DNA from: an uncultured Bacteroidales bacterium
GTDB taxonomy: Bacteria; Bacteroidota; Bacteroidia; Bacteroidales; DTU049
Length of the DNA stretch: 64,000 nt
Reading direction: 5' to 3'
Assembly (NCBI GenBank): GCA_964388575.1
Contig: CAYMAZ010000011.1
Location: forward strand, 1,141 to 65,140
Positions 4,820-52,029 of this stretch are shown here, piece after piece. The position numbers and the translations under genes were made by a program. Each line of letters opens with the position of its first letter. Position 1 is the stretch's first letter. The notes below the pieces were generated by a model. The model worked only from the letters and a program-made list of their open reading frames with translations, had not been told where the DNA came from and did no database searches.

Positions 4820-5155
4820 ATGGACACCAACCCATTTGAATACAAATACCATGAACAGTTAAGGGAAAAAGCACGTTCAATCGTCAATTTCAAGATGCAC
4901 AGAACAGTGTTTTTACTAGCCAATATTTTAATCTGGCTCGTCAATATGTTTTTATATTTTGCATTTCAACTCACATGGGTTTGGGCAATTTTTCCCACCT
5001 CAATCTGGGCTGTTATACTGATTTTTCATTATTTCTGGGTCTTTAAATGGAACAACGACAGGATTGAAAATGAATATCAGAAACTTTTAAGAAAAGGAAG
5101 CAAAACTGACAAAATATTGAAGGATTCTTCGACAGCAAACAACCAAACAAAATAA
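4820..5155 (+). CDS. Small membrane protein with two predicted TM helices (2TM-domain-like)
   Basis: Two adjacent hydrophobic helices (VFLLANILIWLVNMFLYFAF / IFPTSIWAVILIFHYFWVF) are flanked by charged termini. Its own -7 box is present. Confidence 0.6.
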   Translation: MDTNPFEYKYHEQLREKARSIVNFKMHRTVFLLANILIWLVNMFLYFAFQLTWVWAIFPTSIWAVILIFHYFWVFKWNNDRIENEYQKLLRKGSKTDKILKDSSTANNQTK

Positions 5156-5175
5156 AAAATTAAAATTCATACCAT

Positions 5176-5739
5176 ATGACAGACGACTCAATACTCCTTT
5201 TGGAAGAAACAGAAGAGCAGATGCAGCAGGCATTTGCCTATCTGGAAAAAGAACTTCTGAAAATCAGGGCAGGAAAAGCATCACCTCAGATTCTGGAAGA
5301 TATTAAAATTGATTATTACGGCACAATGACTCCGCTCAATCAAACAGCAAATATCAATACTCCGGATGCACGGACAATCGTTATTCAAGCCTGGGACAAG
5401 AGTATTCTTGGTGTGATTGAAAAAGCCATTCTTGCAGCGAATCTGGGATTTACACCTATGAACAACGGTGAGGTACTAAGAATCAACATCCCTCCTATCA
5501 CAGAAGAAAGGAGAAAAGAACTTGTCAAGAAGGCCAAGCAAGAAGCAGAAAATGCCCGAATTGCGATCAGGAATCTCAGGCGTAGTGCAAATGAGAAAGC
5601 CAAGAAACTTGAAAAAGATGGTGTTCCTGAAGATGAAGTAAAGTTACTTGAAAAAGAAATTCAGGACTTGACTGACAAGTGTATAGAAAAGGTTGATAAA
5701 CTGGTTGAAGGTAAGGAAAAAGAAATTCTTACCATTTAA
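5176..5739 (+). CDS. frr: Ribosome recycling factor
   Basis: ..LKIRAGKASPQILEDIKIDYYG..LNQTANI..PDARTI.. and the length (187 aa) are typical of RRF. Confidence 0.96.
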   Translation: MTDDSILLLEETEEQMQQAFAYLEKELLKIRAGKASPQILEDIKIDYYGTMTPLNQTANINTPDARTIVIQAWDKSILGVIEKAILAANLGFTPMNNGEVLRINIPPITEERRKELVKKAKQEAENARIAIRNLRRSANEKAKKLEKDGVPEDEVKLLEKEIQDLTDKCIEKVDKLVEGKEKEILTI

Positions 5740-5796
5740 TTACAGGACTGAAGTTCAGAGTGATTCCAGTCGTTTACACTGGAATGACAGGATTGT

Positions 5797-8292
5797 TTAA
5801 AACATATCATCCTCATTCATTTCATCATCCGAACGTGTTCTTCTTCTTTCAGCCTGTCCATTCTTCGCATTCATTTGCCAGGTGATTCCAACAGTGATAA
5901 CTCTTGATTGCCATTTTCTATTCACATCAAATTTGAAGGTTTCATCCTGCATGGAAACACCAAATTTCATGGTGTTAAAGATATCTCTGACATTCAGATT
6001 AACAGTGAGTTTATTCTGGATTGCCTGATATCGCAGTCCGGCATTCATAAAATACATTGCATTACGTTTGCCCTGCAGCATAACTCTTGGACCACGATAC
6101 ATTGCATTCAACTGAAGATCAAGAGCTTTGGTCAGTTTCATAGTAGAGTTCAGATTTCCGCTGTAAGAAAAGTCGTCTGCTGTCAAATCTGTATCCAGAT
6201 TTTCTCCGTTTATCATTGTTCTGAACAAACTCCCGCTTAAATTGAGCTTCCACCACTTAGTTATGGTTTGATTTACAATGAGTTCCAAGCCAAAAGCATC
6301 GGCACTGGCAATATTTTCATAGGTAGCCAAAGACATTGTGTCCTGATATGTAACTCTGAAACGGGAAATAAGATCAACTGTTCTTTTATAAAATACACTT
6401 GGCATCAGGCTTGTATTCTTCCATATTTTCATATATCCCAACTCCAGTGAATGAATATATTCAGGATTGAGATAAGGATTACCCCCCCTCAGGTTCGGTG
6501 AGTTTGTATAGTCAATAAAAGGACTTAACGAATGGAAACTTGGTCTGTTTACACGTTTACTATATGTAAGCTGTACTTCTTCTCCATCCTTTATCTTTCG
6601 GGAAATTGCAGCAGTTGGATATAAACTGTAATAGTCGTTAAGAATGACAGGTTCATTATTTACCTGTGGTTTTGCCTGCGCATATTCAAAACGCAGACCT
6701 GCTGAGTAGCTCCATTGATCATTGAAAGTCTGCGAAAAATTTGCATAAACAGCATAAACATCTTCATCAAAAGAAAACACATTACTTCTGAGTGTATCAA
6801 ACAATAAGTTCTCATAGGACGAATACCCAGAAAAATAAGCATTATCACTTGTCATAGTTCTGAGAGTTACATGAGTTCCAGTTTCCAGTTTGGCATTTTC
6901 GCCAATTGGATGAGTATAATCGATTTTGCCGAGTATGGTTGAGTTGATTGAGTTTGAGTTTATATCTTCAAGCCATTGATCAACAGAGTCTATTGCAACC
7001 CAGTTTTCATTGAAATAACTCCTGCTTTGTTCCGTTAAGCTTTGAAAATTGCCCCAGGAATAATTAAGATCAACCTGAAGAAATTGTTTGGGATTGTCAA
7101 ATTTCAGATTATAATAAAGATTGCTATTCAGCATATTGTGAGAAAATTCAGAGGTGTTATCATTTCTGAAATTTCTTAGAAAGCTGAGGGCATAATCTTT
7201 TTCTGTATTTGTGTTAAAAGATTCAGAATTTGAGCTTCTGATATTTCCGTTTACTGATATTCCAACGGTAGTTCTGGGATTTATAAAATAATCAGCACCA
7301 AGCTTAAATGAATGCCCCATTGAACGAGATTCATTTTCAGAAATTTGTTCCTGTAGATAAACAGGATAATTTGAGTTATAGCTATATCTGGTAGTCTGAC
7401 CTTCTCCCTTTCTACGGTCACTTCTCAGATCATAATTTGCATAAAGATTAACTTTCTCCAGACCATGTGATACAGCAATATTTCCGGAATATCCCAATTT
7501 TGAATTTGCGTTGACAGAAGCAATGACAGAAGTATTTTGTTCCTTTCTTTTTTTAAGAACGATATTAATAATTCCAGATGTTCCTTCAGGATCATATTTT
7601 GCAGAAGGATTTGTAATCAATTCAATTGTAGAAATCATGTCAGCCGGAATCTGATCCAGCACAGCTTTTCTGGAACCAGCAAAATTGGCTGGACGTCCGT
7701 CTATAAGTATGGTAACATTCTCTGAACCTCTGTAACTTACATTTCCATCCATATCCACAGTTACAGACGGGACAGTTTCGAGAACATCAATTGCAGTACC
7801 GCCTGCAATTGTCACATTGCTCTCAATATTGACGACCTTTCTGTCAAGATTCATTTCAACAAATGGTTTTTCACCAACAATTTCAACTGCATTAAGTGAA
7901 GCAGATGATAAAGTAATGTGTATTTTTCCCACATCCACAACATCTCCGGACTGCTGTGAAACAGTAAAAGGTCCGCATTCTTTGGTGTGATAACCCACAA
8001 ATGTAACTCTGAGCATATATTTACCTGGTGTGATCTGTGGAATTGAAAACAATCCACGTGTATTTGTAATTGCCCCACTCACCAGCATTGAGTCTCTCAT
8101 TCTGAAAGCTGCCACACTTGCAAATTCAAGTGGATGTCCGGAAAGAGAGTCTAGAACATGCCCTCTGATGGTTTTACTTGCCGGTGAATGATTAGCTTGT
8201 TGTTGTTGAGCTGAAAGTGTCAGATTAATTAACAGTAAAAGACAACTGAGTATCAAAGTGTACGTGAGTTTCATATTTAAGAAAATTTTCAT
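5797..8292 (-). CDS. TonB-dependent-receptor-like outer membrane beta-barrel protein with N-terminal carboxypeptidase-regulatory-like domain
   Basis: Signal peptide. A CarbopepD_reg-like segment (IRGHVLDS..PLEFASVA) is followed by a plug-like segment (AIDVLETVPSVTVDMDGNVSYRGSENVTILIDGRP). The rest is a long beta-strand-rich C-terminus ending in an aromatic residue (..DDMF). Confidence 0.8.
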   Translation of the reverse strand: MKIFLNMKLTYTLILSCLLLLINLTLSAQQQQANHSPASKTIRGHVLDSLSGHPLEFASVAAFRMRDSMLVSGAITNTRGLFSIPQITPGKYMLRVTFVGYHTKECGPFTVSQQSGDVVDVGKIHITLSSASLNAVEIVGEKPFVEMNLDRKVVNIESNVTIAGGTAIDVLETVPSVTVDMDGNVSYRGSENVTILIDGRPANFAGSRKAVLDQIPADMISTIELITNPSAKYDPEGTSGIINIVLKKRKEQNTSVIASVNANSKLGYSGNIAVSHGLEKVNLYANYDLRSDRRKGEGQTTRYSYNSNYPVYLQEQISENESRSMGHSFKLGADYFINPRTTVGISVNGNIRSSNSESFNTNTEKDYALSFLRNFRNDNTSEFSHNMLNSNLYYNLKFDNPKQFLQVDLNYSWGNFQSLTEQSRSYFNENWVAIDSVDQWLEDINSNSINSTILGKIDYTHPIGENAKLETGTHVTLRTMTSDNAYFSGYSSYENLLFDTLRSNVFSFDEDVYAVYANFSQTFNDQWSYSAGLRFEYAQAKPQVNNEPVILNDYYSLYPTAAISRKIKDGEEVQLTYSKRVNRPSFHSLSPFIDYTNSPNLRGGNPYLNPEYIHSLELGYMKIWKNTSLMPSVFYKRTVDLISRFRVTYQDTMSLATYENIASADAFGLELIVNQTITKWWKLNLSGSLFRTMINGENLDTDLTADDFSYSGNLNSTMKLTKALDLQLNAMYRGPRVMLQGKRNAMYFMNAGLRYQAIQNKLTVNLNVRDIFNTMKFGVSMQDETFKFDVNRKWQSRVITVGITWQMNAKNGQAERRRTRSDDEMNEDDMF

Positions 8293-8377
8293 ATTGTTAT
8301 AATGTACCCATTAGACAGAAAACAACAATAAAACTTGCGAAAAATGTGAAATATTTTAAAAAAATATGTTTTGGATG

Positions 8378-9130
8378 TTAGTGACACTTGCAATCAGGGT
8401 GTATACCCAATACATAGTTATTAATAACTTCAAGTTGTTGTGCGGTTTCAGCCCCGGCAAAACCTTTCAGATCATTATAAGTCACAGTTTTAATATAATC
8501 TTCTGTGAACCGACATGCAAGAGGAAGATAAGACCAATGCCATGGTTCATCTTCATAACCAGTTAATCGTTCAATTCCTTTCATTTTATATGGCTGACAA
8601 AAACCAAAACGAGCTGCATTATCTTTCAGCCACTGATATTCCTTCACTCCTTTACCTTTCTGGAAATATTCCGGAGATACGCTGTTTATGTCAATATCAG
8701 TTCCCCAGTGATGCCTTGATGTTCCGGGCATAGACGAATAGGTCAGGATTTTTTCAGCACGCATCACTGGATCAGCACATGTTTTGCTTAAATTACTTCC
8801 TTCAACAAGAGTAACGCCCTTCCATTTATTCTCCCATATTTGTTTTTGTCTATCAAAACTGCGGGTTGCGGAAACGATATACAACCTCACACCATCTTTC
8901 ATTGCAGCTTCATGCATCTTCTTAAATGCATCAAAGGTTTCATTGTGCAGATACATGCCCTGTTTAAATGTATAGGGTGTTTTTGCTTCGGTATAATCAG
9001 GTTGTTGAGCAGGATCAAACTGTCCAAGCAGAATTTTTTTTTCTGTTTGTTTCATAACTGTATCATCATTGTGAAATGAAAATCCGTTTAAAAATATCAA
9101 AAAAAAGAAAGGGTATAAAATCGTATTCAT
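8378..9130 (-). CDS. Peptidase M15 family (VanY-like D-alanyl-D-alanine carboxypeptidase)
   Basis: Motifs SATRSFDRQ, SRHHWGTDIDI and EPWHW match the Zn-ligand pattern of M15B/VanY. An N-terminal signal is present. Confidence 0.8.
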   Translation of the reverse strand: MNTILYPFFFLIFLNGFSFHNDDTVMKQTEKKILLGQFDPAQQPDYTEAKTPYTFKQGMYLHNETFDAFKKMHEAAMKDGVRLYIVSATRSFDRQKQIWENKWKGVTLVEGSNLSKTCADPVMRAEKILTYSSMPGTSRHHWGTDIDINSVSPEYFQKGKGVKEYQWLKDNAARFGFCQPYKMKGIERLTGYEDEPWHWSYLPLACRFTEDYIKTVTYNDLKGFAGAETAQQLEVINNYVLGIHPDCKCH

Positions 9131-10107
9131 TTTCTGTTCATTACTTTAAATGCTGCATGATATATGGATTTCGGGTCAAGTTTATATTTTTCCATAAGTT
9201 CTTCAGGCCTTCCGGATTCACCAAACGTATCATGCACACCAATAAATTCAACCGGAACAGGTTTGTTTACAGATAACAACTCTGAGACAGCTGATCCCAG
9301 GCCACCTGCGATCTGATGTTCTTCACAGGTCACAACGGCCCTGCAATGTTCAGCAGCATTCAATATCAATTCATTGTCAAGTGGTTTGATTGTGTGTATG
9401 TTGATAACCATGGCATCAATATCTTTCTTCTTCAGGAGCCTCGATGCATGAAGGGCATTCCATGTTAAATGTCCTGTTGCAATAATACACACATCTGATC
9501 CTGAATTAAGTATCTGACCTTTTCCAATTTCGAAAATCTGTTCTTCTGATGAAAAATCGGGCACAGCTTCACGACCATATCTGATATAACAAGGCCCTTT
9601 AATCTGTTCAACTGCTGCAATAACTGCTTTTTCTGTTTGTGTTGCATCACATGGAGACAAAACTGTCATATTGGGCAGCACCCTCATCACAGCAATATCT
9701 TCAAGAGCCTGATGTGTTGCGCCGTCAGGACCAACGGAAACGCCAGCATGAGCCCCTCCGATAATGACGTGCAGTTTGTTATAACACACTGAAATTCTAA
9801 TCTGGTCTGCACAACGAAAAGCTGAGAAAACCCCGTAGGTGGAAAAAACCGGAATTTTACCCATCAGAGCAAGACCTGAGGCCACTCCCACTGCATTTTG
9901 TTCAGCTATACCCAGAGAAATGAAACGTCCTGGAAAGTGTTCGGCAAATATATCCATTCCGACTGATGCAGTGATGTCTGTTCCAAGACACACTATATTC
10001 CTGTGTTCCAAACCGGCATGATGTAATCCTTTGGCAAATCCAGTTCTTGTGGGTAAGATGGATCTGTACTGATCAGTTTCCATTGTAATTCTTTTCAAGT
10101 TCTTCAA
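9127..10107 (-). CDS. Transketolase, C-terminal (pyrimidine-binding) subunit
   Basis: GIAEQNAVGVASGLA..GKIPVFSTYGVF and the following region resemble the C-terminal half of transketolase. It overlaps the end of the N-terminal subunit gene. The true start may be the internal Met at 10083. Confidence 0.9.
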   Translation of the reverse strand: MKNLKRITMETDQYRSILPTRTGFAKGLHHAGLEHRNIVCLGTDITASVGMDIFAEHFPGRFISLGIAEQNAVGVASGLALMGKIPVFSTYGVFSAFRCADQIRISVCYNKLHVIIGGAHAGVSVGPDGATHQALEDIAVMRVLPNMTVLSPCDATQTEKAVIAAVEQIKGPCYIRYGREAVPDFSSEEQIFEIGKGQILNSGSDVCIIATGHLTWNALHASRLLKKKDIDAMVINIHTIKPLDNELILNAAEHCRAVVTCEEHQIAGGLGSAVSELLSVNKPVPVEFIGVHDTFGESGRPEELMEKYKLDPKSIYHAAFKVMNRK

Positions 10108-18544: not shown

Positions 18545-19597
18545 TTACTTGATTTCTGAATCAGGTTTTTTTGGTTTTGCAATGGTATCTCGCATTTGAG
18601 TATCTGCCTGAATGTTCTGCATTTTATAATAATCCATAATCCCAAGATTACCAGCTCTGAATGCTTCTGCCATTGCTTTAGGCACCTCTGCTTCTGCTTC
18701 AATAACTTTTGCACGGGCTTCCTGTGCTTTAGCCTTCATTTCCTGTTCTAGAGCAACGGCCATTGCACGACGTTCTTCAGCTTTTGCCTGTGCAATTTTC
18801 TTGTCCGCTTCTGCCTGATCCATCTGAAGTTCTGCTCCGATATTCTTTCCAATATCAATATCAGCTATATCAATTGAAAGAATTTCGAATGCCGTTCCTG
18901 AATCAAGTCCTCTGGAAAGTACAAGCTTTGAAATTTTATCTGGATTTTCAAGAACTTCCTTATGTGAGATCGCAGAACCAATGGCTGTAACAATTCCTTC
19001 ACCTACACGAGCAAGGACAGTTTCTTCTCCTGCACCGCCCACAAGTTGTTTAATGTTTGCACGAACCGTAACACGGGCTTTACAAATCAACTGAATACCA
19101 TCCTTAGCAACTGCTGTAACAGGTGGTGTATCAATTACCTTTGGATTTACACTCATCTGAACTGCTTCCAGCACTTCACGGCCGGCAAGATCAATTGCTG
19201 TTGCTGCTTTAAAATCCAGTGAAATATTGGCTTTATCAGCTGAAATCAATGCATTGACAACTCGCTGTACACGACCTCCAGCAAGATAATGCGCCTCAAG
19301 CTCATTACGTCCAAGTTTTAAACCTGCTTTTGATGAAGTGATCATAGCGTTCACTATTACTTTGGGTGGAACTTTACGCCAGCGCATGAAGATTAACTGT
19401 ACCAGTGATATTCTCACTCCGGAAAGCATAGCTGTAAACCATAGTCCGACCGGAACAAAGTAAAAGATGATCCATAATCCAAACAACGCAGCTAATGCAA
19501 TTCCAAAATAAATTCCCACAGATACTCCGGAATTAAGGATGATTAAATAATTGTCAATGACTGTTTCCATAATTTTTATATTTTTTTTAAATAACAT
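18545..19597 (-). CDS. floA: Flotillin-like protein FloA (UPF0365/YqfA family)
   Basis: N-terminal TM hairpin, then ..[24 protein letters not shown]...[26 protein letters not shown].. and an Ala/Glu-rich C-terminus, as in Bacillus FloA. Confidence 0.85.
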
Positions 19598-19655
19598 GGC
19601 GAAGTTACAATATTTTTTGATTTTTCAGTGTTTATTTGGAAAAATTTCATCTCTC

Positions 19656-20039
19656 ATGAAACAGATTTTCTCCATTTTCATGATTTCTCTGCTGATCTTT
19701 TCATGTAAACGTGAACCTGAAGTACATACAACAAACAACAACATACCGAAAAAACAACATTTCTGTTATGATATTCTCTCAGCTGTTGCTCAGAAACCAG
19801 TTCATTCATCATTATATTCATATTCATTTTACAGGAACAGTTCTGTCATTTACTCCGCAAAATATATTATCAGCGGTGCACATACAACAGAAACTGAAAA
19901 TTTTATGATAACCCGTTACGGAATGGAGCCGCTTTTTTTTGTGTGTTGCGGATGGGAAACCAAAAACAAACCCGGTTATATTCGCTCTGCAAATTATGAA
20001 AGTGATTTCAGCATCATCGAGTTAGATATGCTTTCTTAG
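19656..20039 (+). CDS. Hypothetical lipoprotein
   Basis: The internal ATG at 19656 gives MKQIFSIFMISLLIFSCKRE (lipobox LIFSC). The longer track ORF from 19551 would overlap the floA start. No recognisable family. Confidence 0.45.
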   Translation: MKQIFSIFMISLLIFSCKREPEVHTTNNNIPKKQHFCYDILSAVAQKPVHSSLYSYSFYRNSSVIYSAKYIISGAHTTETENFMITRYGMEPLFFVCCGWETKNKPGYIRSANYESDFSIIELDMLS

Positions 20040-20125
20040 AAACACTGAAAACAGACAGATTACAATGGAATGAAACTGACACGTTTTGCATCAATGTCAG
20101 ATTACTTAGAATATAAATGAACTGA

Positions 20126-20587
20126 TTATTCTGATTTTTTCACAAGAATCCTGCTTCCCTCAACCTTAAGGACTTCAATCCCCTGATTTGCATCAACATA
20201 CTCGCCATTTGTTGAAACTTCGTAATATTCGTTATTGATGATTGCCTTTCCCATTGGTGCAAGTCTGGAAACTGACTTACCTTTGTCTCCGGGATTCAGC
20301 TCTTTCTCAATTGTATTCATTTTGCTGTCAATCACATCACCAAGTGCAACTTTTTTCCATGTTCCTGATTTAAAAAAGACGATCATTCCGATGACAAAAA
20401 CAGCAATTGTAGACAATAACGTGATGTGTCCGGCAAATGCTCCATAACTTGCATAAGACTGATACACCCCAAAAACGACAACCAATCCACCGATGATGCC
20501 TACAACCAAACCGGGAAGAACAAATATTTCAAGCATGACCATTAACAGGCCAAACACAATGAGTGGGATAATTACTGACCAGGACAT
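20126..20587 (-). CDS. NfeD-family membrane protein
   Basis: Three N-terminal TM helices plus a C-terminal OB-fold-like soluble domain (..GKAIINNEYYEVSTNGEYVDANQGIEVLKVEGSRILVKK). NfeD is the usual flotillin partner. Confidence 0.8.
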   Translation of the reverse strand: MSWSVIIPLIVFGLLMVMLEIFVLPGLVVGIIGGLVVVFGVYQSYASYGAFAGHITLLSTIAVFVIGMIVFFKSGTWKKVALGDVIDSKMNTIEKELNPGDKGKSVSRLAPMGKAIINNEYYEVSTNGEYVDANQGIEVLKVEGSRILVKKSE

Positions 20588-21703: not shown

Positions 21704-21722
21704 ACTCCCAAAACATTTTTTT

Positions 21723-21730
21723 CAAAATTA
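21723..21730 (-). promoter_or_regulatory. Candidate -7 box TAATTTTG for clpS
   Basis: The minus strand reads TAATTTTG about 20 nt upstream of the clpS ATG (21703). Confidence 0.4.
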
Positions 21731-21736
21731 AAAAAA

Positions 21737-21794
21737 ATTACTGAATTTCGACCCGGAAACTTTATGAAATTTGTAAATCATTAAATTCAGTAAT
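21737..21794. promoter_or_regulatory. Perfect 12-bp inverted repeat in the clpS / nuoE-like divergent control region
   Basis: ATTACTGAATTT (21737-21748) and AAATTCAGTAAT (21783-21794) are exact reverse complements separated by 34 nt. A second 8-bp inverted repeat, ATTTACGA/TCGTAAAT, lies at 21802-21827. Confidence 0.3.
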
Positions 21795-21956
21795 TCGCGT
21801 AATTTACGATGGTAAAATTTCGTAAATAGAAATCACAAACAGCTCATTATATGTGTTTTAAAAATTATTATGCTAATTTGTATTAAATTAAAATTAATAA
21901 ATTAAATCTTTTGAGACTAAAAAAAATATATTTTCGCTTCTGTAAAAAATAATAAT

Positions 21957-22505
21957 ATGAGGATTGCAAGAATATCCAATCAAAAAGAGAATGGTTCTGC
22001 GGAAGAAGATTATCTTCAGGTCAGAGAGAAAATTCAAAAATTTATACACAAAAGGGGAGCAACGATACCTGTATTACAAACCATTCAGGAAGTTTACGGT
22101 TATCTTCCAGGAAACGTGCTGCGTTGTGCAGCTGATGATCTCGGACTTCCGCTGAGTGATATGTATGGAGTTGCAACATTTTACGCACAGTTCAGATTTT
22201 CTCCTGTCGGGAAGTACATCATCAAAGTGTGTCATGGGACAGCATGTCATGTGCAGAATGCCAATTCAATTACCGAAGCACTGGAAGAAGTCCTTGATGT
22301 CAAAGACGGAGAAACAACAGAAGATGGGTTGTTTACACTTGAGTCAGTCGCATGTCTTGGATGTTGCTCTCTTGCTCCGGTCATGATGATCAGCAACAAC
22401 ACATACGGCAAGTTGACAGCCTCCTCATGCGGAAAAATTATTAAAGATATCAGAGCTCAGGAAAAAGAAATAATTCAATCAGATAATACTGAAAATCATG
22501 GGTAA
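21957..22505 (+). CDS. NuoE/HydC-like [2Fe-2S] thioredoxin-fold subunit of an NADH-dependent flavin/Fe-S complex
   Basis: ..LPVLQTIQEVYGYLP...VCHGTACHV....LESVACLGCCSLAPVMMI shows the four-Cys NuoE pattern. Overlaps the next gene by 8 nt. Confidence 0.85.
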   Translation: MRIARISNQKENGSAEEDYLQVREKIQKFIHKRGATIPVLQTIQEVYGYLPGNVLRCAADDLGLPLSDMYGVATFYAQFRFSPVGKYIIKVCHGTACHVQNANSITEALEEVLDVKDGETTEDGLFTLESVACLGCCSLAPVMMISNNTYGKLTASSCGKIIKDIRAQEKEIIQSDNTENHG

Positions 22506-24276
22506 TACAAAAATTCTGGTCGGTTATGCCAGTTGCGGGATTGCTGCCGGGGCCAATAAAGTATACAAAGCATTTGAAAGTATTCTGCAGGATGAACATT
22601 CTGATGCGGAATTGAAACAAACAGGATGTGTCGGAATGTGCTACAGAGAACCTCTTGTTGAAATTATTGACGATACCGGTGCATATCTGTACGGCGGCGT
22701 TGACGAGGAAAAAGCACTCGAAATTTACACCAAACACGTAAAGCTTCATGAACCGGTTAAAAACTATCTGGTTAAAACCGATTTATTTGAAACCGAAGAT
22801 GAAAATTTTTTCAGAAGGCAAATTAAAATTGCACTCCGAAACTGTGGAAAAATTGATCCTGAAAGAATTGAAGAGTATATTGACGAAGGGGGCTATTCCG
22901 CTGTTAAAAAAATCCTTTCAGATAAACTTTCGCAGGAAACAGTCATTCAGGTGGTGCTTGATTCAGGGTTAAGAGGCAGAGGCGGCGGTGGCTTCCCAAC
23001 CGGTTTAAAATGGAAGTTTGCTTATAATAGCTCCGGAAACAACAAATATGTCATTTGTAATGCAGACGAGGGTGACCCGGGGGCTTTCATGGACAGAAGC
23101 CTGCTCGAAGGCGACCCTCATGCAGTGATTGAAGGGATGATCATTGGGGCATATGCCATCGGAGCAAATGAAGGTGTCATTTATTGTCGCGCCGAGTATC
23201 CGCTTGCAATAAAACGACTCAACATCGCACTGGCTCAGGCACGAGAAAAGGGATTCCTTGGAAAAAACATTTTCGGTAAAGAAGGATTCAATTTTGACAT
23301 GTATGTGAAGGAAGGTGCTGGCGCTTTTGTTTGTGGTGAAGAAACTGCTCTAATCGCTTCAATTGAAGGAGAACGCGGAATGCCCAGAAGAAGACCACCT
23401 TTTCCTGCTGTTTCAGGCTTATACAAAAAACCCACAAACATCAATAATGTTGAAACCTGGGCAAATGTTCCGTGGATTATTCGCAACGGTGCTGAAAAAT
23501 ATGCTCAGTACGGAACCGAGAAAAGTAAAGGAACCAAGGTTTTTGCACTTGCGGGAAAAATTAATCACGGTGGACTGGTAGAAGTCCCTATGGGAATCAC
23601 AATTCACGATATCATTTTTGAACTGGGCGGAGGAATTCAGGGAGGCAAACAATTCAAAGCAGTCCAGCTGGGTGGTCCTTCCGGTGGATGTATTCCCGCG
23701 TATCTGAGCAATACCATCGTCGACTATGACTCAGTCAATGCCACTGGAGCCATCATGGGCTCAGGCGGAATGGTGGTTATGGACGAAACAACCTGTATGG
23801 TGGACATGGCAAAATTCTTTCTGGATTTTACGCAAAAAGAATCATGCGGAAAATGTACATTTTGTCGGATCGGTACAAAACGAATGCTCGAAATACTTGT
23901 AAGAATCACTGAAGGAAACGGCAAAGAAGAAGATATTGACATGCTGGAAGAGTTGGCTCAGAATATAAAAGATAATTCGTTGTGTGGGCTTGGACAAACA
24001 GCACCAAATCCAGTTCTGACCACTTTGAAATACTTCAGGGATGAATATATTGCTCACATTGTAGAAAAAAGATGCCCTGCAAAAGTCTGCAAACCTTTGC
24101 TGACCTATACTGTTATTCCTGAGAAATGTACAGGATGTACAGTATGTGCTAAAAACTGTCCTTCAAACTGCATCAGCGGATCAAGAAAAGAAATCCATTT
24201 CATAAACCAGGAATCGTGTATCAAATGTGGAATGTGTTTCACAAAATGCAAATTTGATGCAATCCATATTGAATAA
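22498..24276 (+). CDS. NuoF/HydB-like FMN- and NADH-binding subunit with N-terminal thioredoxin-like Fe-S domain and C-terminal 2x[4Fe-4S] ferredoxin domain
   Basis: GLRGRGGGGFPTGLKWKF (FMN/NADH site). ESCGKCTFCRIG (N3-type cluster). C-terminal CTGCTVCAKNCP and CIKCGMCFTKC motifs. N-terminal ..SCGIAAGA...GCVGMCYREPLV. Confidence 0.9.
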   Translation: MGNTKILVGYASCGIAAGANKVYKAFESILQDEHSDAELKQTGCVGMCYREPLVEIIDDTGAYLYGGVDEEKALEIYTKHVKLHEPVKNYLVKTDLFETEDENFFRRQIKIALRNCGKIDPERIEEYIDEGGYSAVKKILSDKLSQETVIQVVLDSGLRGRGGGGFPTGLKWKFAYNSSGNNKYVICNADEGDPGAFMDRSLLEGDPHAVIEGMIIGAYAIGANEGVIYCRAEYPLAIKRLNIALAQAREKGFLGKNIFGKEGFNFDMYVKEGAGAFVCGEETALIASIEGERGMPRRRPPFPAVSGLYKKPTNINNVETWANVPWIIRNGAEKYAQYGTEKSKGTKVFALAGKINHGGLVEVPMGITIHDIIFELGGGIQGGKQFKAVQLGGPSGGCIPAYLSNTIVDYDSVNATGAIMGSGGMVVMDETTCMVDMAKFFLDFTQKESCGKCTFCRIGTKRMLEILVRITEGNGKEEDIDMLEELAQNIKDNSLCGLGQTAPNPVLTTLKYFRDEYIAHIVEKRCPAKVCKPLLTYTVIPEKCTGCTVCAKNCPSNCISGSRKEIHFINQESCIKCGMCFTKCKFDAIHIE

Positions 24277-24293
24277 ATAATATTTCCATCTCA

Positions 24294-27200
24294 ATGAATA
24301 AAATAAATGTAATATTAAACGGAAAGCCTGTTGTTGGTTTTGAAGGGGAATCAATCCTTGAGCTTGCAAAGCGCAATGGATATGAAATCCCGACATTATG
24401 CCATGACCCGAGAATTGAACCGTTCTCTTCGTGTTTTGTCTGTGTTGTTCAGGTTGAAAAAATGAAGGGAATGCAACCTTCCTGTTCAACAAAAATTACT
24501 GAAGGAATGATCATTGACAGTGAGAGTGATCAGGTGAAAAAAGCACGCAAATCCGCTCTTGACTTATTACTGAGCAATCACTATGCAGACTGTGTTGCTC
24601 CCTGTAAACAAACTTGCCCGGCCGGTGTGGATGTTCAGGGCTATATTTCACTGATTGAAAAAGGATTGTATTCGGAAGCCATCGGTTTAATCAAACAAAC
24701 GAATCCACTGCCTGCTATCTGCGGACGTGTGTGTGTTCGTCCCTGTGAGGCAGCCTGCCGGCGCAATCTGCTTGACGAACAAACCGGGGTTGGTATAGAT
24801 TACCTGAAACGCTTTGCTGCAGATCAGGACCTGGCTTCTGACAATCATTACAAACCAGAAGTGGCTCCCTCAACAGGGAAAAAAATCGCAATCATCGGCG
24901 GAGGCCCTGGCGGTTTGTCTGCAGCATATTTTTTGCAGCAAAAGGGGCATCAGTGTGACATTTATGAAGTAGCACCTGCTGTGGGCGGCTGGCTCAGATA
25001 CGGAATTCCCGAATATCGTTTGCCAAATGACCTGATTGAAAAAGAAGTGTCAACCATCACCGAACTTGGAGTTCAGATTTTCTGCAACAGAAAACTCGGA
25101 GGAAATATCAGTTATAAAGATCTTCGTGAACAATATGATGCAACGATCATTACTGTGGGATCACAAAAAGGCACACTTGTCGGTGTTGATGGTGATGATG
25201 CAGAAAATGTTTTCTCAGGGATAGAGTTTTTAAGGAATATGGCCATCACCGGACAGGTGTACGACTTCAAAGGGAAAACGATTGCTGTTGTCGGAGGTGG
25301 AAATACTGCCATGGATTGTTGCCGCACGTCCATTCGCTGTGGGGCAGAGAAAGTATATGTCATTTACAGGCGCACAGAAAAGGAAATGCCTGCAAATCCA
25401 ATTGAAATACACGAATCAAAACTTGAAGGTGTGGAATATATGTTTCTCACAAATCCCACCAGGGTGAATAAAGATGAAAACGGCAGACTGAAGTCGGTCA
25501 CCTGCATCAAGATGGAACTGGGTGAACCCGACAGTTCAGGACGCAGAAGGCCTGTCCCCAAGGAAGGATCTGAACATGATATTGAACTGGATTATTTGCT
25601 GGCAGCTATCGGACAAAAAACTGATGTGAGTTTTATTAACGACATCAATGAATTTGCAAAAGCAGGCGAATTTAAAATCAACAAATGGGGTGATGTCGAA
25701 GTCAATCCGAATACTTTTGAAACAGGAATTCCGGGAGTTTTTTCAGCCGGAGATTGTGTTTCAGGACCCGCAACAGTCATTGAAGCAATTTATCAGGCTC
25801 GCATTGCATCACAAAGCTGTCATCAATTTCTGACCGGACAACCGGTTGAAAACAAAAACTTCGAATTTATCAGCAGAAAGCATCATTTTAAAGAACAGAT
25901 AAAGGAAGAATATGCCCCCTATTTCAAAAAGCAAATGCGCGAAGAGATGCCTGTTCTTGATCCCGGCAAACGCATGAACTTTGATGAAGTTGAACTTGGT
26001 TATGCAGGTGATGAAGTTGCAAAACACGAAACAGGAAGGTGTCTTGAATGTGGCTGTTCAGCTTATTACACCTGTAATCTCAAAAAATTTGCTACTGAAT
26101 ATCAGGCTGACCAAAAGCATTTTGCAGGGGATTTCAAGGAATATCATGTTGATTTTTCACATCCGTTTATTGAGATTGATAACAACAAATGTATTTTGTG
26201 CGGCCGGTGCATCAGGATCTGTCGTGAAGTTGTCGGGGCAAATGCACTTGGATTTATCAACAGGGGATTTGACACATTTGTGGCCCCAGCCATGGAGTTA
26301 CCACTGACAGAAACAACATGTGAAAGCTGCGGAATGTGCATCTCCACATGTCCTACGGCTGCTTTGTCCGAAAACAAAGACTTTAAGCCCGGACCCGTGA
26401 AAACTGAATCATTTAAAGCCGTGTGCAATTTCTGTTCAGTTGGATGCGAAGTCGAATATCATCATGTGAACGGATTCATCATGGGAGCAGAAGGCTCAAA
26501 GGGACTTGTCAATAAAGACGGAAATATCTGCCGCTTTCCGAGGTTCGGCTATCGTCTCTTTAACAGAGATAACAGGATTACAAAGCCAATGGCAAAGAAA
26601 CAAGGCAATCTGGTTGAAATTTCGTGGGATGAAGCTTTTGATCTGATCCGCTCCCGCATTCAGTTTGTACTGCCGGATGAAAATGCATTTTTTGCAGGAG
26701 CACGACTGAGCAATGAAGAGATGTACCTGGTTCAGAAATTTGCACGCGCCGCAGTGAAGACAAATAATGTTGCCAGCTTCCAGTACCTAGAAAGAGGAAA
26801 AGGATATCATGCCACCACATTAAAAAATGTTCCGTTTGATCAGATCGCCGGTGCAAAACGTGTTGTATTGTTCGGTTCTGAAATCAACCGTGAAAATGCA
26901 GTTGTGAGTTTTATGATCCAGAATTCTGTACATAAATTCGGAACCAGGCTTGAAATCATCACAACCTGCAATGAAACACTGATGGATCATAAAGCCGGTC
27001 ATATTCTCAGAATTTCGTCATATCATTCTTTCATGCAGGCCGCAAACCACTATCTGATCAGCAACAAGCTGCACAATATGATGTTCATTACTGAAAGAAC
27101 CGAAGGATTTGAAGACTACAAAAACGAACTGTTACAGAAAAATTATCAGGATCTGCTTGATCATGCCGGAACAACAAAAGCTGAACTTGAACAATTTGTC

Positions 27201-27983
27201 AGCAACTTCAACAATGATCACGAATCAATACTGGTCTATGCCGAACGTAATGTTGATGCGAATACCGCTTTTGAGATCGCAGCATTCGGGATGCTGACCG
27301 GAAAAACAGGAAAAAAGTCTGCAGGAATTATTGCGATGAAAGAAAGTAATAATTCGCACGGACTGTTTGACATGGGCATTTGCCCGAAAACCGGACCCGG
27401 CGGACAATCGCTGACGGATGAAGTGTATATCGAAAACCTGAAGAAAATATGGGAAGTTGATGAAATTCCAGTAATTAAAGACTACAGTCTTGTGGAGAAA
27501 ATGAAAACCTACCAGATCAAAAATTTGTTCATTTTCGGCGAAGACCCGGTAGGATGTGCTGACGACGGGCAGGAAACCAATGAATTATTGTTCAATTCAT
27601 CATTTATCTGTGTTCAGGATGTGTTCCTTTCAGCCACTGCAAAAACTGCTGACCTTGTCCTTCCAATGAACCTGCCGTTTGAGGAAGGCGGAACATACAC
27701 AAACACACAAAAATTTGTGCAGAGTTTTGAGTCTCAGCTGAAATCACCAAACCTGAAAAGTAATTTCGGTGTACTCAATGAACTGATGAAATTATCCGGT
27801 TTAAAAACCTATGAATCATGGCATAGTGTCAGCGATGAGATTGCATCTGTTCTTCCCGGACAGGAGATTGATCCTGAATTTAACTTTACTGAAAAGGAAA
27901 AATATGCACGTCGCTTCAATCATGGATGCGATGACATTAAAAGAATGTATTGTGAATTTTTCACTTCCTGTATACAGAAATAA
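24294..27983 (+). CDS. 1229-aa fusion: 2Fe-2S ferredoxin + GltD/NfnB-like NAD(P)H flavoprotein + NuoG-type Fe-S domains + degenerate molybdopterin-oxidoreductase-like domain
   Basis: N-terminus CHDPRIEPFSSCFVCVVQV..PSC (2Fe-2S). CKQTCPAGVD..ICGRVCVRPCEAAC (GltD-type clusters). KKIAIIGGGPGGLSAAYFL and TIAVVGGGNTAMDC (two Rossmann GxGxxG sites). HETGRCLECGC, CILCGRCIRIC and CESCGMCISTCP (NuoG-type clusters). CNFCSVGCEV..x28..C (molybdopterin-type 4Fe-4S). The remainder is a ~520-aa Fdh/NuoG-like domain. Confidence 0.85.
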   Translation: MNKINVILNGKPVVGFEGESILELAKRNGYEIPTLCHDPRIEPFSSCFVCVVQVEKMKGMQPSCSTKITEGMIIDSESDQVKKARKSALDLLLSNHYADCVAPCKQTCPAGVDVQGYISLIEKGLYSEAIGLIKQTNPLPAICGRVCVRPCEAACRRNLLDEQTGVGIDYLKRFAADQDLASDNHYKPEVAPSTGKKIAIIGGGPGGLSAAYFLQQKGHQCDIYEVAPAVGGWLRYGIPEYRLPNDLIEKEVSTITELGVQIFCNRKLGGNISYKDLREQYDATIITVGSQKGTLVGVDGDDAENVFSGIEFLRNMAITGQVYDFKGKTIAVVGGGNTAMDCCRTSIRCGAEKVYVIYRRTEKEMPANPIEIHESKLEGVEYMFLTNPTRVNKDENGRLKSVTCIKMELGEPDSSGRRRPVPKEGSEHDIELDYLLAAIGQKTDVSFINDINEFAKAGEFKINKWGDVEVNPNTFETGIPGVFSAGDCVSGPATVIEAIYQARIASQSCHQFLTGQPVENKNFEFISRKHHFKEQIKEEYAPYFKKQMREEMPVLDPGKRMNFDEVELGYAGDEVAKHETGRCLECGCSAYYTCNLKKFATEYQADQKHFAGDFKEYHVDFSHPFIEIDNNKCILCGRCIRICREVVGANALGFINRGFDTFVAPAMELPLTETTCESCGMCISTCPTAALSENKDFKPGPVKTESFKAVCNFCSVGCEVEYHHVNGFIMGAEGSKGLVNKDGNICRFPRFGYRLFNRDNRITKPMAKKQGNLVEISWDEAFDLIRSRIQFVLPDENAFFAGARLSNEEMYLVQKFARAAVKTNNVASFQYLERGKGYHATTLKNVPFDQIAGAKRVVLFGSEINRENAVVSFMIQNSVHKFGTRLEIITTCNETLMDHKAGHILRISSYHSFMQAANHYLISNKLHNMMFITERTEGFEDYKNELLQKNYQDLLDHAGTTKAELEQFVSNFNNDHESILVYAERNVDANTAFEIAAFGMLTGKTGKKSAGIIAMKESNNSHGLFDMGICPKTGPGGQSLTDEVYIENLKKIWEVDEIPVIKDYSLVEKMKTYQIKNLFIFGEDPVGCADDGQETNELLFNSSFICVQDVFLSATAKTADLVLPMNLPFEEGGTYTNTQKFVQSFESQLKSPNLKSNFGVLNELMKLSGLKTYESWHSVSDEIASVLPGQEIDPEFNFTEKEKYARRFNHGCDDIKRMYCEFFTSCIQK

Positions 27984-28000
27984 TTAAAAAGGAGGAATGT

Positions 28001-28456
28001 ATGAAAGTCTTTCAAAATGTAAATGAAATTCTTGTTTTTGCCATGGAGCAGGAACAAAAGGCTGTTGAGTTTTACACACAGCTGGCAGCTGATGCTAAAA
28101 CCGAAGACATGCGTAAGATATTTGAAGATTTTGCAAAAGAAGAAATCAGTCACAAAGCCCGGTTAAAGCAAATTCAGCAGGACGGCATCATGACACTTAC
28201 CGAAGAAAATGTACAGGATCTTAAAATTTCTGATTATAATGTCCCTGAGGAACCCTCGGCTGACATGACCTATTCAGAAGCAATGAAACTTGCCATGTCA
28301 AAAGAAAAAGCTGCATTCAAACTCTACACAGCACTGGCTGATCGTGTTGAAAACAAAGAACTTCAAAAGATTTTTCAGTTGCTTGCAATTGAAGAATCAA
28401 AGCATAAACTGAGATTCGAAATCGAATACGATGAATTTGTACTGAGAGAAAACTGA
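28001..28456 (+). CDS. Rubrerythrin-like / ferritin-like diiron four-helix-bundle protein (no rubredoxin domain)
   Basis: Two E...ExxH pairs (EQKAVEFY...EEISHKARL; EKAAFKLY...EESKHKLRFE). 151 aa. Starts 18 nt after the fusion gene. Confidence 0.7.
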   Translation: MKVFQNVNEILVFAMEQEQKAVEFYTQLAADAKTEDMRKIFEDFAKEEISHKARLKQIQQDGIMTLTEENVQDLKISDYNVPEEPSADMTYSEAMKLAMSKEKAAFKLYTALADRVENKELQKIFQLLAIEESKHKLRFEIEYDEFVLREN

Positions 28457-28674: not shown

Positions 28675-28879
28675 CAATACAAAAGGCGTCATCTTCAGAT
28701 AAAAATCAACTGTGTTGATTTTTTATTGTCTTGAGACAGCTGCGATGAAATCTTGATTTTTGAGTAATTGTCTCAAAACAACAGAACGCCTTTTGTATTG
28801 CCACACTCTCATTATTCGTGGTATTTGTGAAATTCGTGGCTGAAAAAACGTGCGTTTTGAACCTAATAAGCAATTACAA
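28675..28879 (+). repeat. Structured intergenic repeat, copy A (nested-hairpin element 28675-28800 plus conserved TCGTGG/TTTGTGAAA tail)
   Basis: A 15-bp closing stem, CAATACAAAAGGCGT (28675-28689) / ACGCCTTTTGTATTG (28786-28800), encloses a 10-bp hairpin (28701-28723) and an 8-bp hairpin (28731-28738 / 28769-28776). The tail, from about 28801 to 28879, recurs at 33292-33371. Confidence 0.6.
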
Positions 28880-49820: not shown

Positions 49821-51224
49821 CTATAACAGGCTTTCATCAATCTGATAAGGAGCAATGTGTTCAGGTTTGCAATGAAGTATACACTGATCGCAACTTGAAA
49901 GTTCACCCTTCAGGCGCCGGTGCACCATATTCTCAGTACGAGTCTGCAATCTTTCAACCCTGATCTTTCTGACAACTTCGTCAGCAAAAGCATACATCAT
50001 CAGCAAACGTGCATTTTTTTCACAAATTCCGCGCTGACGCAGATAAAACATTGAGTCAAGATCGAGCTGTCCGGTTGTAGAACCGTGACTACACCGCACA
50101 TCATCATTGTAGATTTCAAGGAAAGGTTTACTTATGACACTTGCCTGATCAGTCAGAAGGATATTCTTGTTCGACTGAAACGCTTCGGTTTTCATTGCAC
50201 CTTCAGCAACAAAGATATGACCTGTAAACACTGAACTGGCTTCTTCATCAAGAATCCCCTTAAAAGTCTGACGACTGAAGCAGTTGGGCGCATAATGCCT
50301 CACAAACAACTGATTATCTACATGTTGTGTTTTGTCAATCAGATAAAGCCCGGATAAATCAGCATTTGCCTCAGTGCCATTCAAATTCACGACAAATTCA
50401 TTTCTGATGGATCCTGCATTAAACGTAATCATATTGCTATGCAACTGCCCCTGTGATTCAATATTAAAAAAAGATGTATTGATCATTGAAGAGCTGAGGT
50501 CTTTATTCTGAAGCTTATAATGGTCAAGTTTGGCATTTTCGCCAATAAAGAACTCAGTGACTGAATTTTTAAAGGAATTCTTATCTTCCAGTGAATCATC
50601 ACATTGCAAAAAAGTCAGGCTGCTGTTTTTCTCAAGTACAATCAGGTTTCTTGTCTGGACAAACAGTCCATCCCTGTGCATGATAAGGTTCACCAATTGC
50701 ATGGGTGTATCACAATGAATGTTTTCAGGAACATAAATAAACAAACCGTCAGATGCCAGTGCTGCGTTCAAAGCTGTCAAGCCATTATAGGTTGCAGTTT
50801 CTGATTTGCTCCAAAACTTTTCAATAAGATCGGGAAACTCCATAAGTGCCTGTTTGATACTTCCGGCTATGATTCCGTTATCCATGCGGGTCAGTGGACT
50901 TGAATCGTACAGATTATGACCGTTGTAATTGGCAAAGAAAAGTGTTTCAAAATTGTGAATTTCACATTTAAAAACGTTGTTCACATCAATGGAACGATCG
51001 ATCTGTATATCATTGCTGAATTTATATTCAGGCTGAAGGATTTTTCCCAGATCTGTTCCCTTCCAATATTCCATAGCAGTTGACGGGAATCCGTTTTCTT
51101 TAAAAAAATCCAATGCCTTATTACGCTCAGATTGAACATAATCAGGAAAACCTAAATGATCACCATTCAGTCTGTCGTACAACTTCAACAAGTTATCAGT
51201 TAATACTTGTATGTTCTGATTCAT
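49821..51224 (-). CDS. sufD: Fe-S cluster assembly protein SufD
   Basis: C-terminal beta-helix region with ..KPFLEIYNDDVRCSHGSTTGQLD..MFYLRQRGI... Follows sufB-sufC. Confidence 0.9.
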   Translation of the reverse strand: MNQNIQVLTDNLLKLYDRLNGDHLGFPDYVQSERNKALDFFKENGFPSTAMEYWKGTDLGKILQPEYKFSNDIQIDRSIDVNNVFKCEIHNFETLFFANYNGHNLYDSSPLTRMDNGIIAGSIKQALMEFPDLIEKFWSKSETATYNGLTALNAALASDGLFIYVPENIHCDTPMQLVNLIMHRDGLFVQTRNLIVLEKNSSLTFLQCDDSLEDKNSFKNSVTEFFIGENAKLDHYKLQNKDLSSSMINTSFFNIESQGQLHSNMITFNAGSIRNEFVVNLNGTEANADLSGLYLIDKTQHVDNQLFVRHYAPNCFSRQTFKGILDEEASSVFTGHIFVAEGAMKTEAFQSNKNILLTDQASVISKPFLEIYNDDVRCSHGSTTGQLDLDSMFYLRQRGICEKNARLLMMYAFADEVVRKIRVERLQTRTENMVHRRLKGELSSCDQCILHCKPEHIAPYQIDESLL

Positions 51225-51233
51225 GAGTTTCTC

Positions 51234-51980: not shown

Positions 51981-52029
51981 ATCTTTTTCTTTAAACTTAT
52001 TTTTACTTTGTACTTTTTTAACTTTTAAA

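Follow-up and report, generated by a model that had tools for sequence, protein, structure and literature searches.

Electron-bifurcating transhydrogenases of the Nfn-Bfu type are represented by three solved enzymes: NfnABC of Caldicellulosiruptor saccharolyticus (Protein Data Bank (PDB) entries 9BOV and 9BP5; PMC11829005), StnABC of Sporomusa ovata (8OH5; PMC10482914; Stn is also treated in PMC7483475) and Nfn-BfuABC of Thermococcus sibiricus (9N5U; PMC12018979). In the classification of Schut et al. (PMC9304861), the Nfn-type BfuB subunits correspond to clade 53. Here we describe a related locus in a stretch of 64,000 nucleotides (nt) from an uncultured Bacteroidales bacterium of the lineage DTU049 (assembly GCA_964388575.1, contig CAYMAZ010000011.1, positions 1,141 to 65,140 of the forward strand), referred to below, at its full length, as the window. 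Judged by sequence, the genes nfnC, nfnB and nfnA and a fourth gene for a diiron protein of 151 amino acids (aa) very probably form a Bacteroidota operon for an Nfn-Bfu (NfnABC/StnABC) electron-bifurcating transhydrogenase. The enzyme itself is an ordinary member of the known Nfn-Bfu/Stn family, and the sole novelty is the conserved, lineage-specific diiron accessory gene of the Bacteroidota operons.

The four open reading frames (ORFs) are tightly packed on the plus strand (Table 1): nfnC and nfnB overlap by 8 nt, nfnB and nfnA are 17 nt apart, and a further gap of 17 nt between nfnA and the diiron gene holds AAAGGAGG, a strong AGGAGG-type ribosome-binding site. A first-pass annotation, made from the letters alone, had read the first three genes as a NuoE/NuoF/giant-fusion set at 21957-27983, and the ORFs do lie at exactly these coordinates, with the domains it listed recovered by Pfam. 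Its proposal of a Bfu/Stn-type enzyme coupling NADH, ferredoxin and NADPH also held: in sequence searches covering all PDB chains, the three solved Nfn-Bfu/Stn enzymes came first for every subunit, and the cofactor ligands are conserved. NfnA matched 9bov_A (E 4e-228), 8oh5_C (4e-214) and 9n5u_A (7e-181), and is collinear with the first of these over aa 4-1030 against 4-998. The best matches of NfnC were 9n5u_C (NfnC; 8e-50), 8oh5_A and 9bov_C. NfnB scored 887 bits with 9n5u_B, 851 with 9bov_B and 847 with 8oh5_B, each over about residues 5-592, followed by the B subunit of a NiFe Bfu hydrogenase (780 bits) and by FeFe HydB (711-626 bits), whereas the respiratory Nqo1/NuoF proteins reached 383-363 bits and covered only residues ~110-526, both terminal domains being absent there. 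The ligands of A1-A7, B1-B5 and C1 are all present, with little or no variation across 28 diverse representatives and 120 Bacteroidota homologues, the two sets to which the statements on conservation below refer.

Along NfnA, Pfam finds Fer2_4 (aa 3-77), Fer4_20 (100-181), Pyr_redox_2 (197-502), Fer4_Nqo3 (624-691), Molybdop_Fe4S4 (706-754) and Molybdopterin (761-1166). This domain order had been called unusual, and it is not, since C. saccharolyticus NfnA and S. ovata StnC share the identical, canonical order (PMC11829005). By analogy with these proteins, NfnA would be the NADP(H)-binding electron-input subunit. The four cysteines of its N-terminal cluster A1 are invariant in both sets. The GltD-like insert, which the first-pass annotation had placed at about 24546-25884, is found close to these positions as an NfnL/GltD-like module (Table 1), and this module also matches the large subunits of NfnSL in the PDB (4ylf_B, 2e-95; 5jca_L, 9e-86). 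Its cluster A7 is liganded by C108/C147/C151 and K172, equivalent to C108/C147/C151/K170 in C. saccharolyticus, the lysine being K165 in T. sibiricus; this lysine proved essential in mutants of the S. ovata and T. sibiricus enzymes (PMC10482914, PMC12018979). The remaining cluster residues of the module are H96, C100, C104 and C155. The alignment also bears out the FAD- and NADPH-binding residues expected of such a module, namely GGGPGG at aa 202-207 for FAD, and GGGNTAMD at aa 334-341 with R359/R360 for NADPH. K172, R359, R360 and H96 are invariant in the 120 homologues, as is K172 in the diverse representatives. In the NuoG-type region, the three sites are formed by C583/C586/C588/C594, C633/C636/C639/C643 and C676/C679/C682/C686, and all twelve cysteines are invariant in both sets. 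A candidate hidden rubredoxin-like or metal site in the C-terminal tail (H1210/C1212/C1220/C1226) was rejected, only C1212 being conserved in the 120 homologues.

The two smaller subunits are equally complete. NfnC is recognised by Pfam 2Fe-2S_thioredx (PF01257, E 8.5e-50), and in the PDB alignment its cluster ligands C92/C97/C133/C137 correspond to C74/C79/C115/C119 of T. sibiricus at an offset of +18. In NfnB, Pfam detects Complex1_51K (4e-48), SLBB, NADH_4Fe-4S (5e-36) and two C-terminal Fer4 domains (aa 539-589). The NADH/FMN loops GLRGRGGGGFP (at aa 157) and TGAIMGSGG (at aa 416) are conserved with C. saccharolyticus NfnB, for which both are named in PMC11829005. B1 is liganded by C450/C453/C456/C496, and the ligands of the Zn site B2 (C433/H520/C526/C531) align to C437/H524/C529/C534 of T. 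sibiricus; according to the authors of the latter structure, the B2 histidine marks Bfu-type B subunits and is missing from non-bifurcating homologues (PMC12018979). The C-terminal 2x[4Fe-4S] domain predicted for the NuoF-like subunit is present, with the B3 and B4 ligands C544/C547/C550/C554 and C574/C577/C580/C584 in two CX2CX2CX3C motifs; by analogy, it would be the ferredoxin-facing end of the low-potential branch. At the opposite end, the thioredoxin-like Fe-S domain that had been claimed stands as a fold and probably falls as an Fe-S domain. Undetected by Pfam, it aligns end to end with the thioredoxin-fold domain of the solved NfnB proteins, and its site B5 consists of three cysteines and a glutamate, not four cysteines. 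The B5 motifs SCGIAAGA...GCVGMCYREPL are identical in T. sibiricus NfnB and conserved in that of C. saccharolyticus. As the matching site holds Zn in both structures (PMC12018979; PMC11829005, where the site is explicitly 3Cys+1Glu), B5 is predicted most likely to bind Zn and is probably no Fe-S site.

The NCBIfam models exceeding their cut-offs for NfnC and NfnB are those of NuoE and NuoF, and the best model for NfnA is PRK12814, 'putative NADPH-dependent glutamate synthase small subunit', at 627 bits and thus below its cut-off of 916. The latter match would suit a complex that merely resembles Nfn-Bfu, that is, a non-bifurcating NADH:NADP+ or NAD(P)H:ferredoxin oxidoreductase, or a complex of the glutamate-synthase small-subunit type. 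We consider this improbable: the bifurcating core is complete (the B2 histidine H520, the ferredoxin-like domain with B3/B4, and the C1 thioredoxin-like domain with its linker), no gltB-like large subunit is encoded within ~19 kb upstream or ~35 kb downstream, and all characterised enzymes of this architecture bifurcate.

The C-terminal part of NfnA retains the A5 [4Fe-4S] cluster (C711/C714/C718/C746) in a formate-dehydrogenase (FDH)-like domain. The Molybdopterin (1e-31) and Molybdop_Fe4S4 matches, the JGI name 'formate dehydrogenase major subunit', the similarity of the C-terminal 530 aa to formate dehydrogenases (E about 1e-49 to 1e-31) and the existence of relatives that join the same N-terminal architecture to a complete FDH module would all agree with a working FDH or another molybdopterin oxidoreductase, the complex then being an Fdh-Bfu or an NADP-linked FDH. 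Such a function is nevertheless hardly credible. When these 530 aa are aligned to E. coli FDH-H (1aa6_A), the catalytic SeCys140 (SeCys/Cys140 in FdhF), His141 and Arg333 are replaced by E833, R834 and K1016, and position 833 is unconstrained, as its residue varies among the 120 homologues (G in 44, N in 30, E in 24; T and H also occur). The pterin-capping domain is missing, since the FdhF alignment ends near residue 510 of 715, and the Pfam scan of NfnA found neither this Molydop_binding cap (PF01568) nor Fe_hyd_lg_C, which confirms the earlier view that the subunit has neither an H-cluster nor a competent FDH site. The FDH alpha-subunit model TIGR01591 gives 256 bits against a cut-off of 666, and the solved C. 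saccharolyticus NfnA shows no pterin density (PMC11829005). Longer relatives of 1365-1409 aa with the same 2Fe2S-GltD-NuoG N-terminus (P0311, P0319, P0321, P0341, P0376 and, from Aeromonas sobria, L015 at 4980-9158) keep a complete FDH including the PF01568 cap, and their Molybdopterin domain scores 250-292 bits against 110 in the window protein. The domain thus appears to be a catalytically dead remnant; with a complete FDH in the longer relatives and not in the window NfnA, this fits the view of the C. saccharolyticus authors, who regard their Fdh-like domain as an evolutionary remnant (PMC11829005). The Aeromonas relative has no adjoining BfuB or BfuC genes, and a further relative of 1589 aa (P0362) additionally bears a MobA-like domain. 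A fusion of a ferritin domain to the longer relatives, in the manner of a Rosetta stone, was also considered and discarded, the extra length being the complete FDH cap and, once, the MobA-like domain.

Against the assignment to the Nfn-Bfu family weigh several points. The placement of NfnB with the Nfn-type BfuB proteins is provisional, being drawn from ranked bit scores. For the Bacteroidota members we infer which reaction they catalyse, which cofactors they hold (Zn or [2Fe-2S] at B5) and how they oligomerise. The C-terminal 530 aa (26391-27980), with their matches to real formate dehydrogenases (E 3.5e-49 to 3.5e-31), reach E 1e-30 with the equivalent domain of neither the C. saccharolyticus nor the S. 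ovata NfnA; since FDHs outscore both, this Bacteroidota remnant has decayed less than its counterparts in the characterised enzymes. Finally, the Bacteroidota system, with its conserved fourth gene, differs in composition from the characterised three-subunit enzymes.

About 8000 NfnA matches at E<=1e-50 emerged when 5.8 billion proteins were searched. The best 120 of these are full-length or nearly so (1156-1255 aa, all but one at least 1224 aa; 57-96% identity), and all the named ones among them come from metagenome-assembled genomes (MAGs) of Bacteroidota/Bacteroidales. With NfnA residues 1-1200 as query against representatives clustered at 50%, the best 150 were found at E<=3e-158; most of them align from the first residues of the query, and a few are C-terminal fragments. 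A genome scan revealed clusters in the order C-B-A in Acidobacteriota, Bacillota, a Chromatiales MAG, Cloacimonadota, Elusimicrobiota, Spirochaetia, Chloroflexota and others. The groups named in the survey by Kremp et al. 2020 were Firmicutes, Proteobacteria, Synergistetes and Euryarchaeota, with no Bacteroidetes, and Schut et al. 2022 (PMC9304861) noted the Nfn-type BfuB 'also in Synergistetes and Bacteroidetes'. Given the abundant matches and the latter report, the Bacteroidota context is neither rare nor unreported, and the claim that it is unusual had to be abandoned. A different arrangement occurs in a Christensenellaceae locus (L057, 3303-8411), where a BfuB with a C-terminal GltD-like Fer4_20/Pyr_redox_2 module, and with no Fer4 dicluster domain at the threshold used, is followed by the [FeFe]-hydrogenase HydA; similar ORFs of 1022-1065 aa are present in L054, L059, L072, L073 and L076, the domain scan covering L057 only.

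The product of the fourth gene matches Pfam Rubrerythrin (E 6e-16), contains no cysteine and has no rubredoxin domain. Two E...ExxH motifs provide the diiron ligands E18/E48/H51 and E102/E132/H135, which, together with Y25 and Y109, are invariant in 22 family members. The AlphaFold2 model (pLDDT 89) consists of four long helices forming a four-helix bundle, whose best fold matches are 1vjx (TM1526) and 2fzf, both at a TM-score of 0.78, true rubrerythrins reaching ~0.63; the NCBIfam rubrerythrin model gives 19.6 bits against a cut-off of 200. With its fold closest to these COG1633 proteins and its rubrerythrin score below cut-off, the protein is of the erythrin type and no rubrerythrin; of the two features that define a rubrerythrin sensu stricto, the diiron bundle is present and the C-terminal rubredoxin-like Fe(Cys)4 domain is absent. 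There was no match to NCBIfam NF009413, a model named as a GltD/ferritin-domain fusion.

Of the features that the first-pass annotation had singled out as unusual, this rubrerythrin-like neighbour is the only one that truly is. The diiron gene directly follows nfnA in 7/7 Bacteroidota loci (the window, L001, L004, L038, L167, L168 and L169), all with the order C-B-A upstream. The NfnA of L001 is 63% identical to that of the window, from which its flanking genes differ, and loci whose NfnA is 56-63% identical preserve the order of all four genes. By contrast, scans by phmmer and with a family hidden Markov model (E<=10) found the gene in none of the non-Bacteroidota loci scanned, among them 16 (0/16) with a near-full-length NfnA (at least 1100 aa) and C and B genes upstream. 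The reverse search started from the diiron gene in 80 metagenome loci, 68 of which offered enough upstream DNA. In 61/68 the end of nfnA lies within 400 nt, and in 3/68 nfnA is 0.8-1.7 kb upstream, so that 64/68 have nfnA upstream overall; in 4/68 there is no nfn gene. Over 63 metagenome loci, the median distance from nfnA to the diiron gene is 17 nt (60 nt or less in 47/63), and the genes overlap in 8/63. The inserts of 0.8-1.7 kb (L090, 5213-5983; L098, 4390-5992; L149, 4248-5965) comprise a 337-aa ORF with a hydrophobic N-terminus in L098, a 525-aa ORF in L149 and only low-complexity sequence in L090. In three of the four nfn-less loci (L118, 4563-6456; L141, 35-1957; L158, 4519-6456), the diiron gene directly follows a glutamate dehydrogenase gene (ELFV_dehydrog). 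This neighbourhood is a second, minor context of the diiron gene; within 6 kb of flanking DNA, none of the other nfn-diiron loci sampled has a glutamate dehydrogenase gene. A GltD-domain locus without the diiron gene (L080) has one 2.6 kb upstream.

Such a linkage raises the question of whether the diiron protein is a fourth component of the complex. In the literature searched, no paper connects an Nfn-type Bfu with a rubrerythrin-like gene, and the predicted Rub-Bfu comes closest to the idea. It is conceivable, if doubtful, that the protein docks on NfnABC and draws electrons, for example from the dead-end A2-A4-A5 branch of the Fdh-like domain. We are similarly hesitant about an NAD(P)H/ferredoxin-driven peroxidase or oxidase that would reduce H2O2 or O2, either to protect the complex or to vent an electron overflow, and a BfuA-containing counterpart of Rub-Bfu likewise seems rather unlikely. 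The conserved position after nfnA in all seven Bacteroidota loci, the upstream nfnA in most of the diiron loci, with its short median gap and occasional overlaps, and the invariant ligands and two flanking tyrosines favour such a partnership. The same is true of the missing rubredoxin domain, the feature that feeds electrons into canonical rubrerythrins and whose absence implies that the protein needs an external donor. Moreover, the C. saccharolyticus authors describe the A4-A5 side branch as lacking an acceptor (PMC11829005), and Schut et al. independently predicted rubrerythrin-coupled Bfu cores (PMC9304861). However, this evidence comes from gene neighbourhood only. Compared with 26 diverse representatives, the Bacteroidota NfnA has no specific insertion or docking element of at least 4 aa; its C-terminal cysteines are not conserved, and there is no conserved extra metal site. 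The glutamate dehydrogenase context, found in three of the four nfn-less loci, means that the gene is not strictly tied to NfnA, and TM1526, its nearest relative by structure, is encoded away from Bfu genes in Thermotoga. The fourth protein is therefore most likely a co-expressed protective or iron-handling accessory.

From the gene order, domains, ligands, relatives and operon conservation observed, we infer cofactor occupancy, catalytic direction and a role for the fourth protein as follows. If the path follows that of the three solved homologues, the FAD in the GltD/NfnL-like module of NfnA would be where NADP(H) reacts, and electrons would then pass from A7 (3Cys+Lys172) through A6, A3, A2 and A1 to B1 of NfnB. 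There, the flavobicluster B1-FMN-C1 would split or merge electron pairs, with NAD(H) reacting at FMN in the high-potential branch and, in the low-potential branch, the mobile C1 [2Fe-2S] domain of NfnC swinging to B3/B4 and on to ferredoxin. The cellular direction is likely confurcating (NADH + reduced ferredoxin + 2 NADP+ -> NAD+ + oxidised ferredoxin + 2 NADPH) and would feed biosynthetic NADPH to an anaerobic fermenter. On the C. saccharolyticus count, the complex would hold about eleven Fe-S clusters. For the product of the presumably co-transcribed diiron gene, peroxide or oxygen scavenging, or iron handling for the complex, would be the most plausible roles.

The main value of this assignment lies in annotation, as databases call NfnA 'formate dehydrogenase major subunit', 'molybdopterin-dependent oxidoreductase', 'FAD-dependent oxidoreductase' and, once, 'nitrate reductase'. 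The operon would connect the NADH, ferredoxin and NADPH pools of many anaerobic Bacteroidota, generating NADPH in doing so, and metabolic models of gut, sediment and digester communities are affected. If the diiron protein were indeed a partner, the unexplained dead-end cluster branch of NfnA would gain a function and a bifurcating transhydrogenase would be coupled to oxidative-stress defence. It would then be the first BfuA-containing counterpart of the hypothetical Rub-Bfu, giving experimental footing to the proposed rubrerythrin-linked Bfu enzymes.

Table 1. Features of the nfn operon and its surroundings, in positions of the window.
Feature	Coordinates	Strand	Basis
Presumed promoter region, AT-rich intergenic 253 nt between divergent clpS and nfnC	21704..21956	+	sequence
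nfnC (BfuC; NuoE/HydC-like), 182 aa	21957..22505	+	Pfam PF01257, PDB matches
NfnC N-terminal helical part and thioredoxin-like C-terminal domain bearing C1 [2Fe-2S], ligands C92/C97/C133/C137			
nfnB (BfuB; NuoF/HydB-like), 592 aa	22498..24276	+	Pfam, PDB matches
NfnB as FMN- and NAD(H)-binding bifurcating subunit (by homology)	22498..24276	+	
NfnB N-terminal thioredoxin-like domain, ~aa 1-110, B5 site C13/C44/C48/E51	22498..22827	+	alignment
NfnB core: Rossmann-like FMN/NADH domain, ubiquitin-like domain, four-helix bundle; NADH/FMN loops, B1 and first B2 ligand C433	22957..24057	+	
NfnB hinge and C-terminal ferredoxin-like domain; other B2 ligands H520/C526/C531, B3 and B4	24055..24273	+	two CX2CX2CX3C motifs
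nfnA (BfuA type 1; StnC in Sporomusa nomenclature), 1229 aa	24294..27983	+	PDB matches
NfnA N-terminal [2Fe-2S] domain, cluster A1, C36/C47/C50/C64	24294..24548	+	Pfam Fer2_4
NfnL/GltD-like module, aa 96-516, [4Fe-4S] clusters A6 and A7	24579..25841	+	Fer4_20, Pyr_redox_2
NuoG/HydA-type Fe-S region, three [4Fe-4S] sites	26040..26363	+	Pfam Fer4_Nqo3
Degenerate Fdh-like domain, aa 706-1229	26409..27980	+	alignment to FDH-H
Diiron ferritin-like (erythrin-type) gene, 151 aa, fourth in operon	28001..28456	+	Pfam Rubrerythrin, fold

Across the 253-nt spacer upstream of the operon lies a divergent clpS-M48 peptidase-nfeD group, and a spacer of 518 nt follows the diiron gene. Scans of the operon for sigma-70 promoters and intrinsic terminators gave counts at or below shuffled expectation, and neither an Rfam family nor a tRNA gene was detected anywhere in the window. 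The exact sequence of the diiron protein is also present on a Logan contig of identical gene layout, whose five called products from nfnC to a 167-aa gene agree in length with those of the window; an exact-sequence look-up of the window NfnA gave no match. Among named relatives, uncultured Bacteroidales and Prolixibacteraceae MAGs come nearest. Over the operon (22001-28000) the G+C content is 41-43% with a positive GC skew, and the flanking 2-kb bins have 35-37%. The spacer 3' of the diiron gene contains a nested palindromic element of 126 nt (28675-28800), whose perfectly complementary outer arms of 15 nt (CAATACAAAAGGCGT / ACGCCTTTTGTATTG) enclose a terminator-like hairpin (28701-28723, then a U-run) and a second long hairpin. 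Its RNA fold reaches -45.5 kcal/mol (z = -6.3); Rfam gave no match for the element, and its arm sequence is not repeated elsewhere in the window.

The remainder of the window is ordinary Bacteroidota chromosome without a functional tie to the operon. It encodes a TonB-dependent receptor, proteins with type IX secretion system tails, dipeptidyl peptidase IV, a FloA/NfeD pair, leucyl-tRNA synthetase, a GH20 glycosidase, SufB, SufD, class I and class II fumarases and a PAS hybrid kinase. The flotillin-like FloA and NfeD genes, ~0.5 kb apart on the minus strand (18545-20587), sit just upstream of the M48 peptidase and clpS genes, which point away from the operon. Two SufB/SufD-family genes flank a 248-aa ORF (49821-53475), and the class II fumarase gene (59774-61156) adjoins that of the class I Fe-S fumarase (61190-62809).

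Among the known systems, the more distant ones resemble single parts of the locus. NfnSL/NfnAB (4YLF, 5JCA) catalyses the same overall reaction and has a large subunit homologous to the GltD-like module of NfnA; yet it is an unrelated enzyme of two subunits that bifurcates at a single FAD, and the fourth ligand of its FAD-proximal cluster is a glutamate, not a lysine. The COG1633 proteins TM1526 (1VJX) and 2FZF of P. furiosus are, like the fourth protein, single-domain four-helix bundles with two E...ExxH motifs; both are uncharacterised and share 22-26% sequence identity with it, and the Thermotoga TM1526 homologues neighbour GH12 cellulases and an Rrf2 regulator or radical-SAM gene, not Bfu genes. 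The predicted Rub-Bfu (Type 4 Bfu, PMC9304861), for which a coupling of NADH/ferredoxin to peroxide reduction was proposed, also has a rubrerythrin-family gene directly downstream of the Bfu genes. It is, however, defined by the absence of BfuA and by a rubrerythrin gene right after BfuB (clade 57), whereas in the window nfnB and the diiron gene are separated by a full Nfn-type BfuA, which places the locus outside that definition, and the fourth protein is a 151-aa ferritin-like domain without a rubredoxin module.

The three solved enzymes are far closer. C. saccharolyticus NfnABC (PMC11829005) has, like the window, three subunits, an NfnA ordered as N-terminal [2Fe-2S] domain, NfnL/GltD-like module and Fdh/NuoG-like part (1178 aa against 1229 aa in the window), the ligand sets 3Cys+Lys at A7, 3Cys+Glu at B5 and 3Cys+His at B2, and an incomplete pterin site. 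It differs in its host, a thermophilic Firmicute, and in an Fdh-like domain strongly diverged from that of the window; the diiron gene adjoins nfnA in no non-Bacteroidota locus of our sample, which does not include the C. saccharolyticus locus itself. S. ovata StnABC belongs to the same family and has the same architecture, window residues 1-838 aligning to 1-819 of 8oh5_C, and it performs NADH-dependent reduced-ferredoxin:NADP+ oxidoreduction with an essential lysine at the FAD-proximal cluster. Its subunit letters are reversed (StnC = NfnA, StnA = NfnC), its host is an acetogen in which the genes adjoin those of the Wood-Ljungdahl pathway, and its B5 was modelled as [2Fe-2S]. T. sibiricus Nfn-BfuABC is archaeal and forms a monomeric heterotrimer whose NfnA is short (963 aa), with no A4 cluster and with most of the Fdh-like domain missing. 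It is nonetheless the best match of both NfnB and NfnC of the window, with an identical B5 motif, Zn in both B2 and B5 and a B1-FMN-C1 flavobicluster mechanism (PMC12018979).

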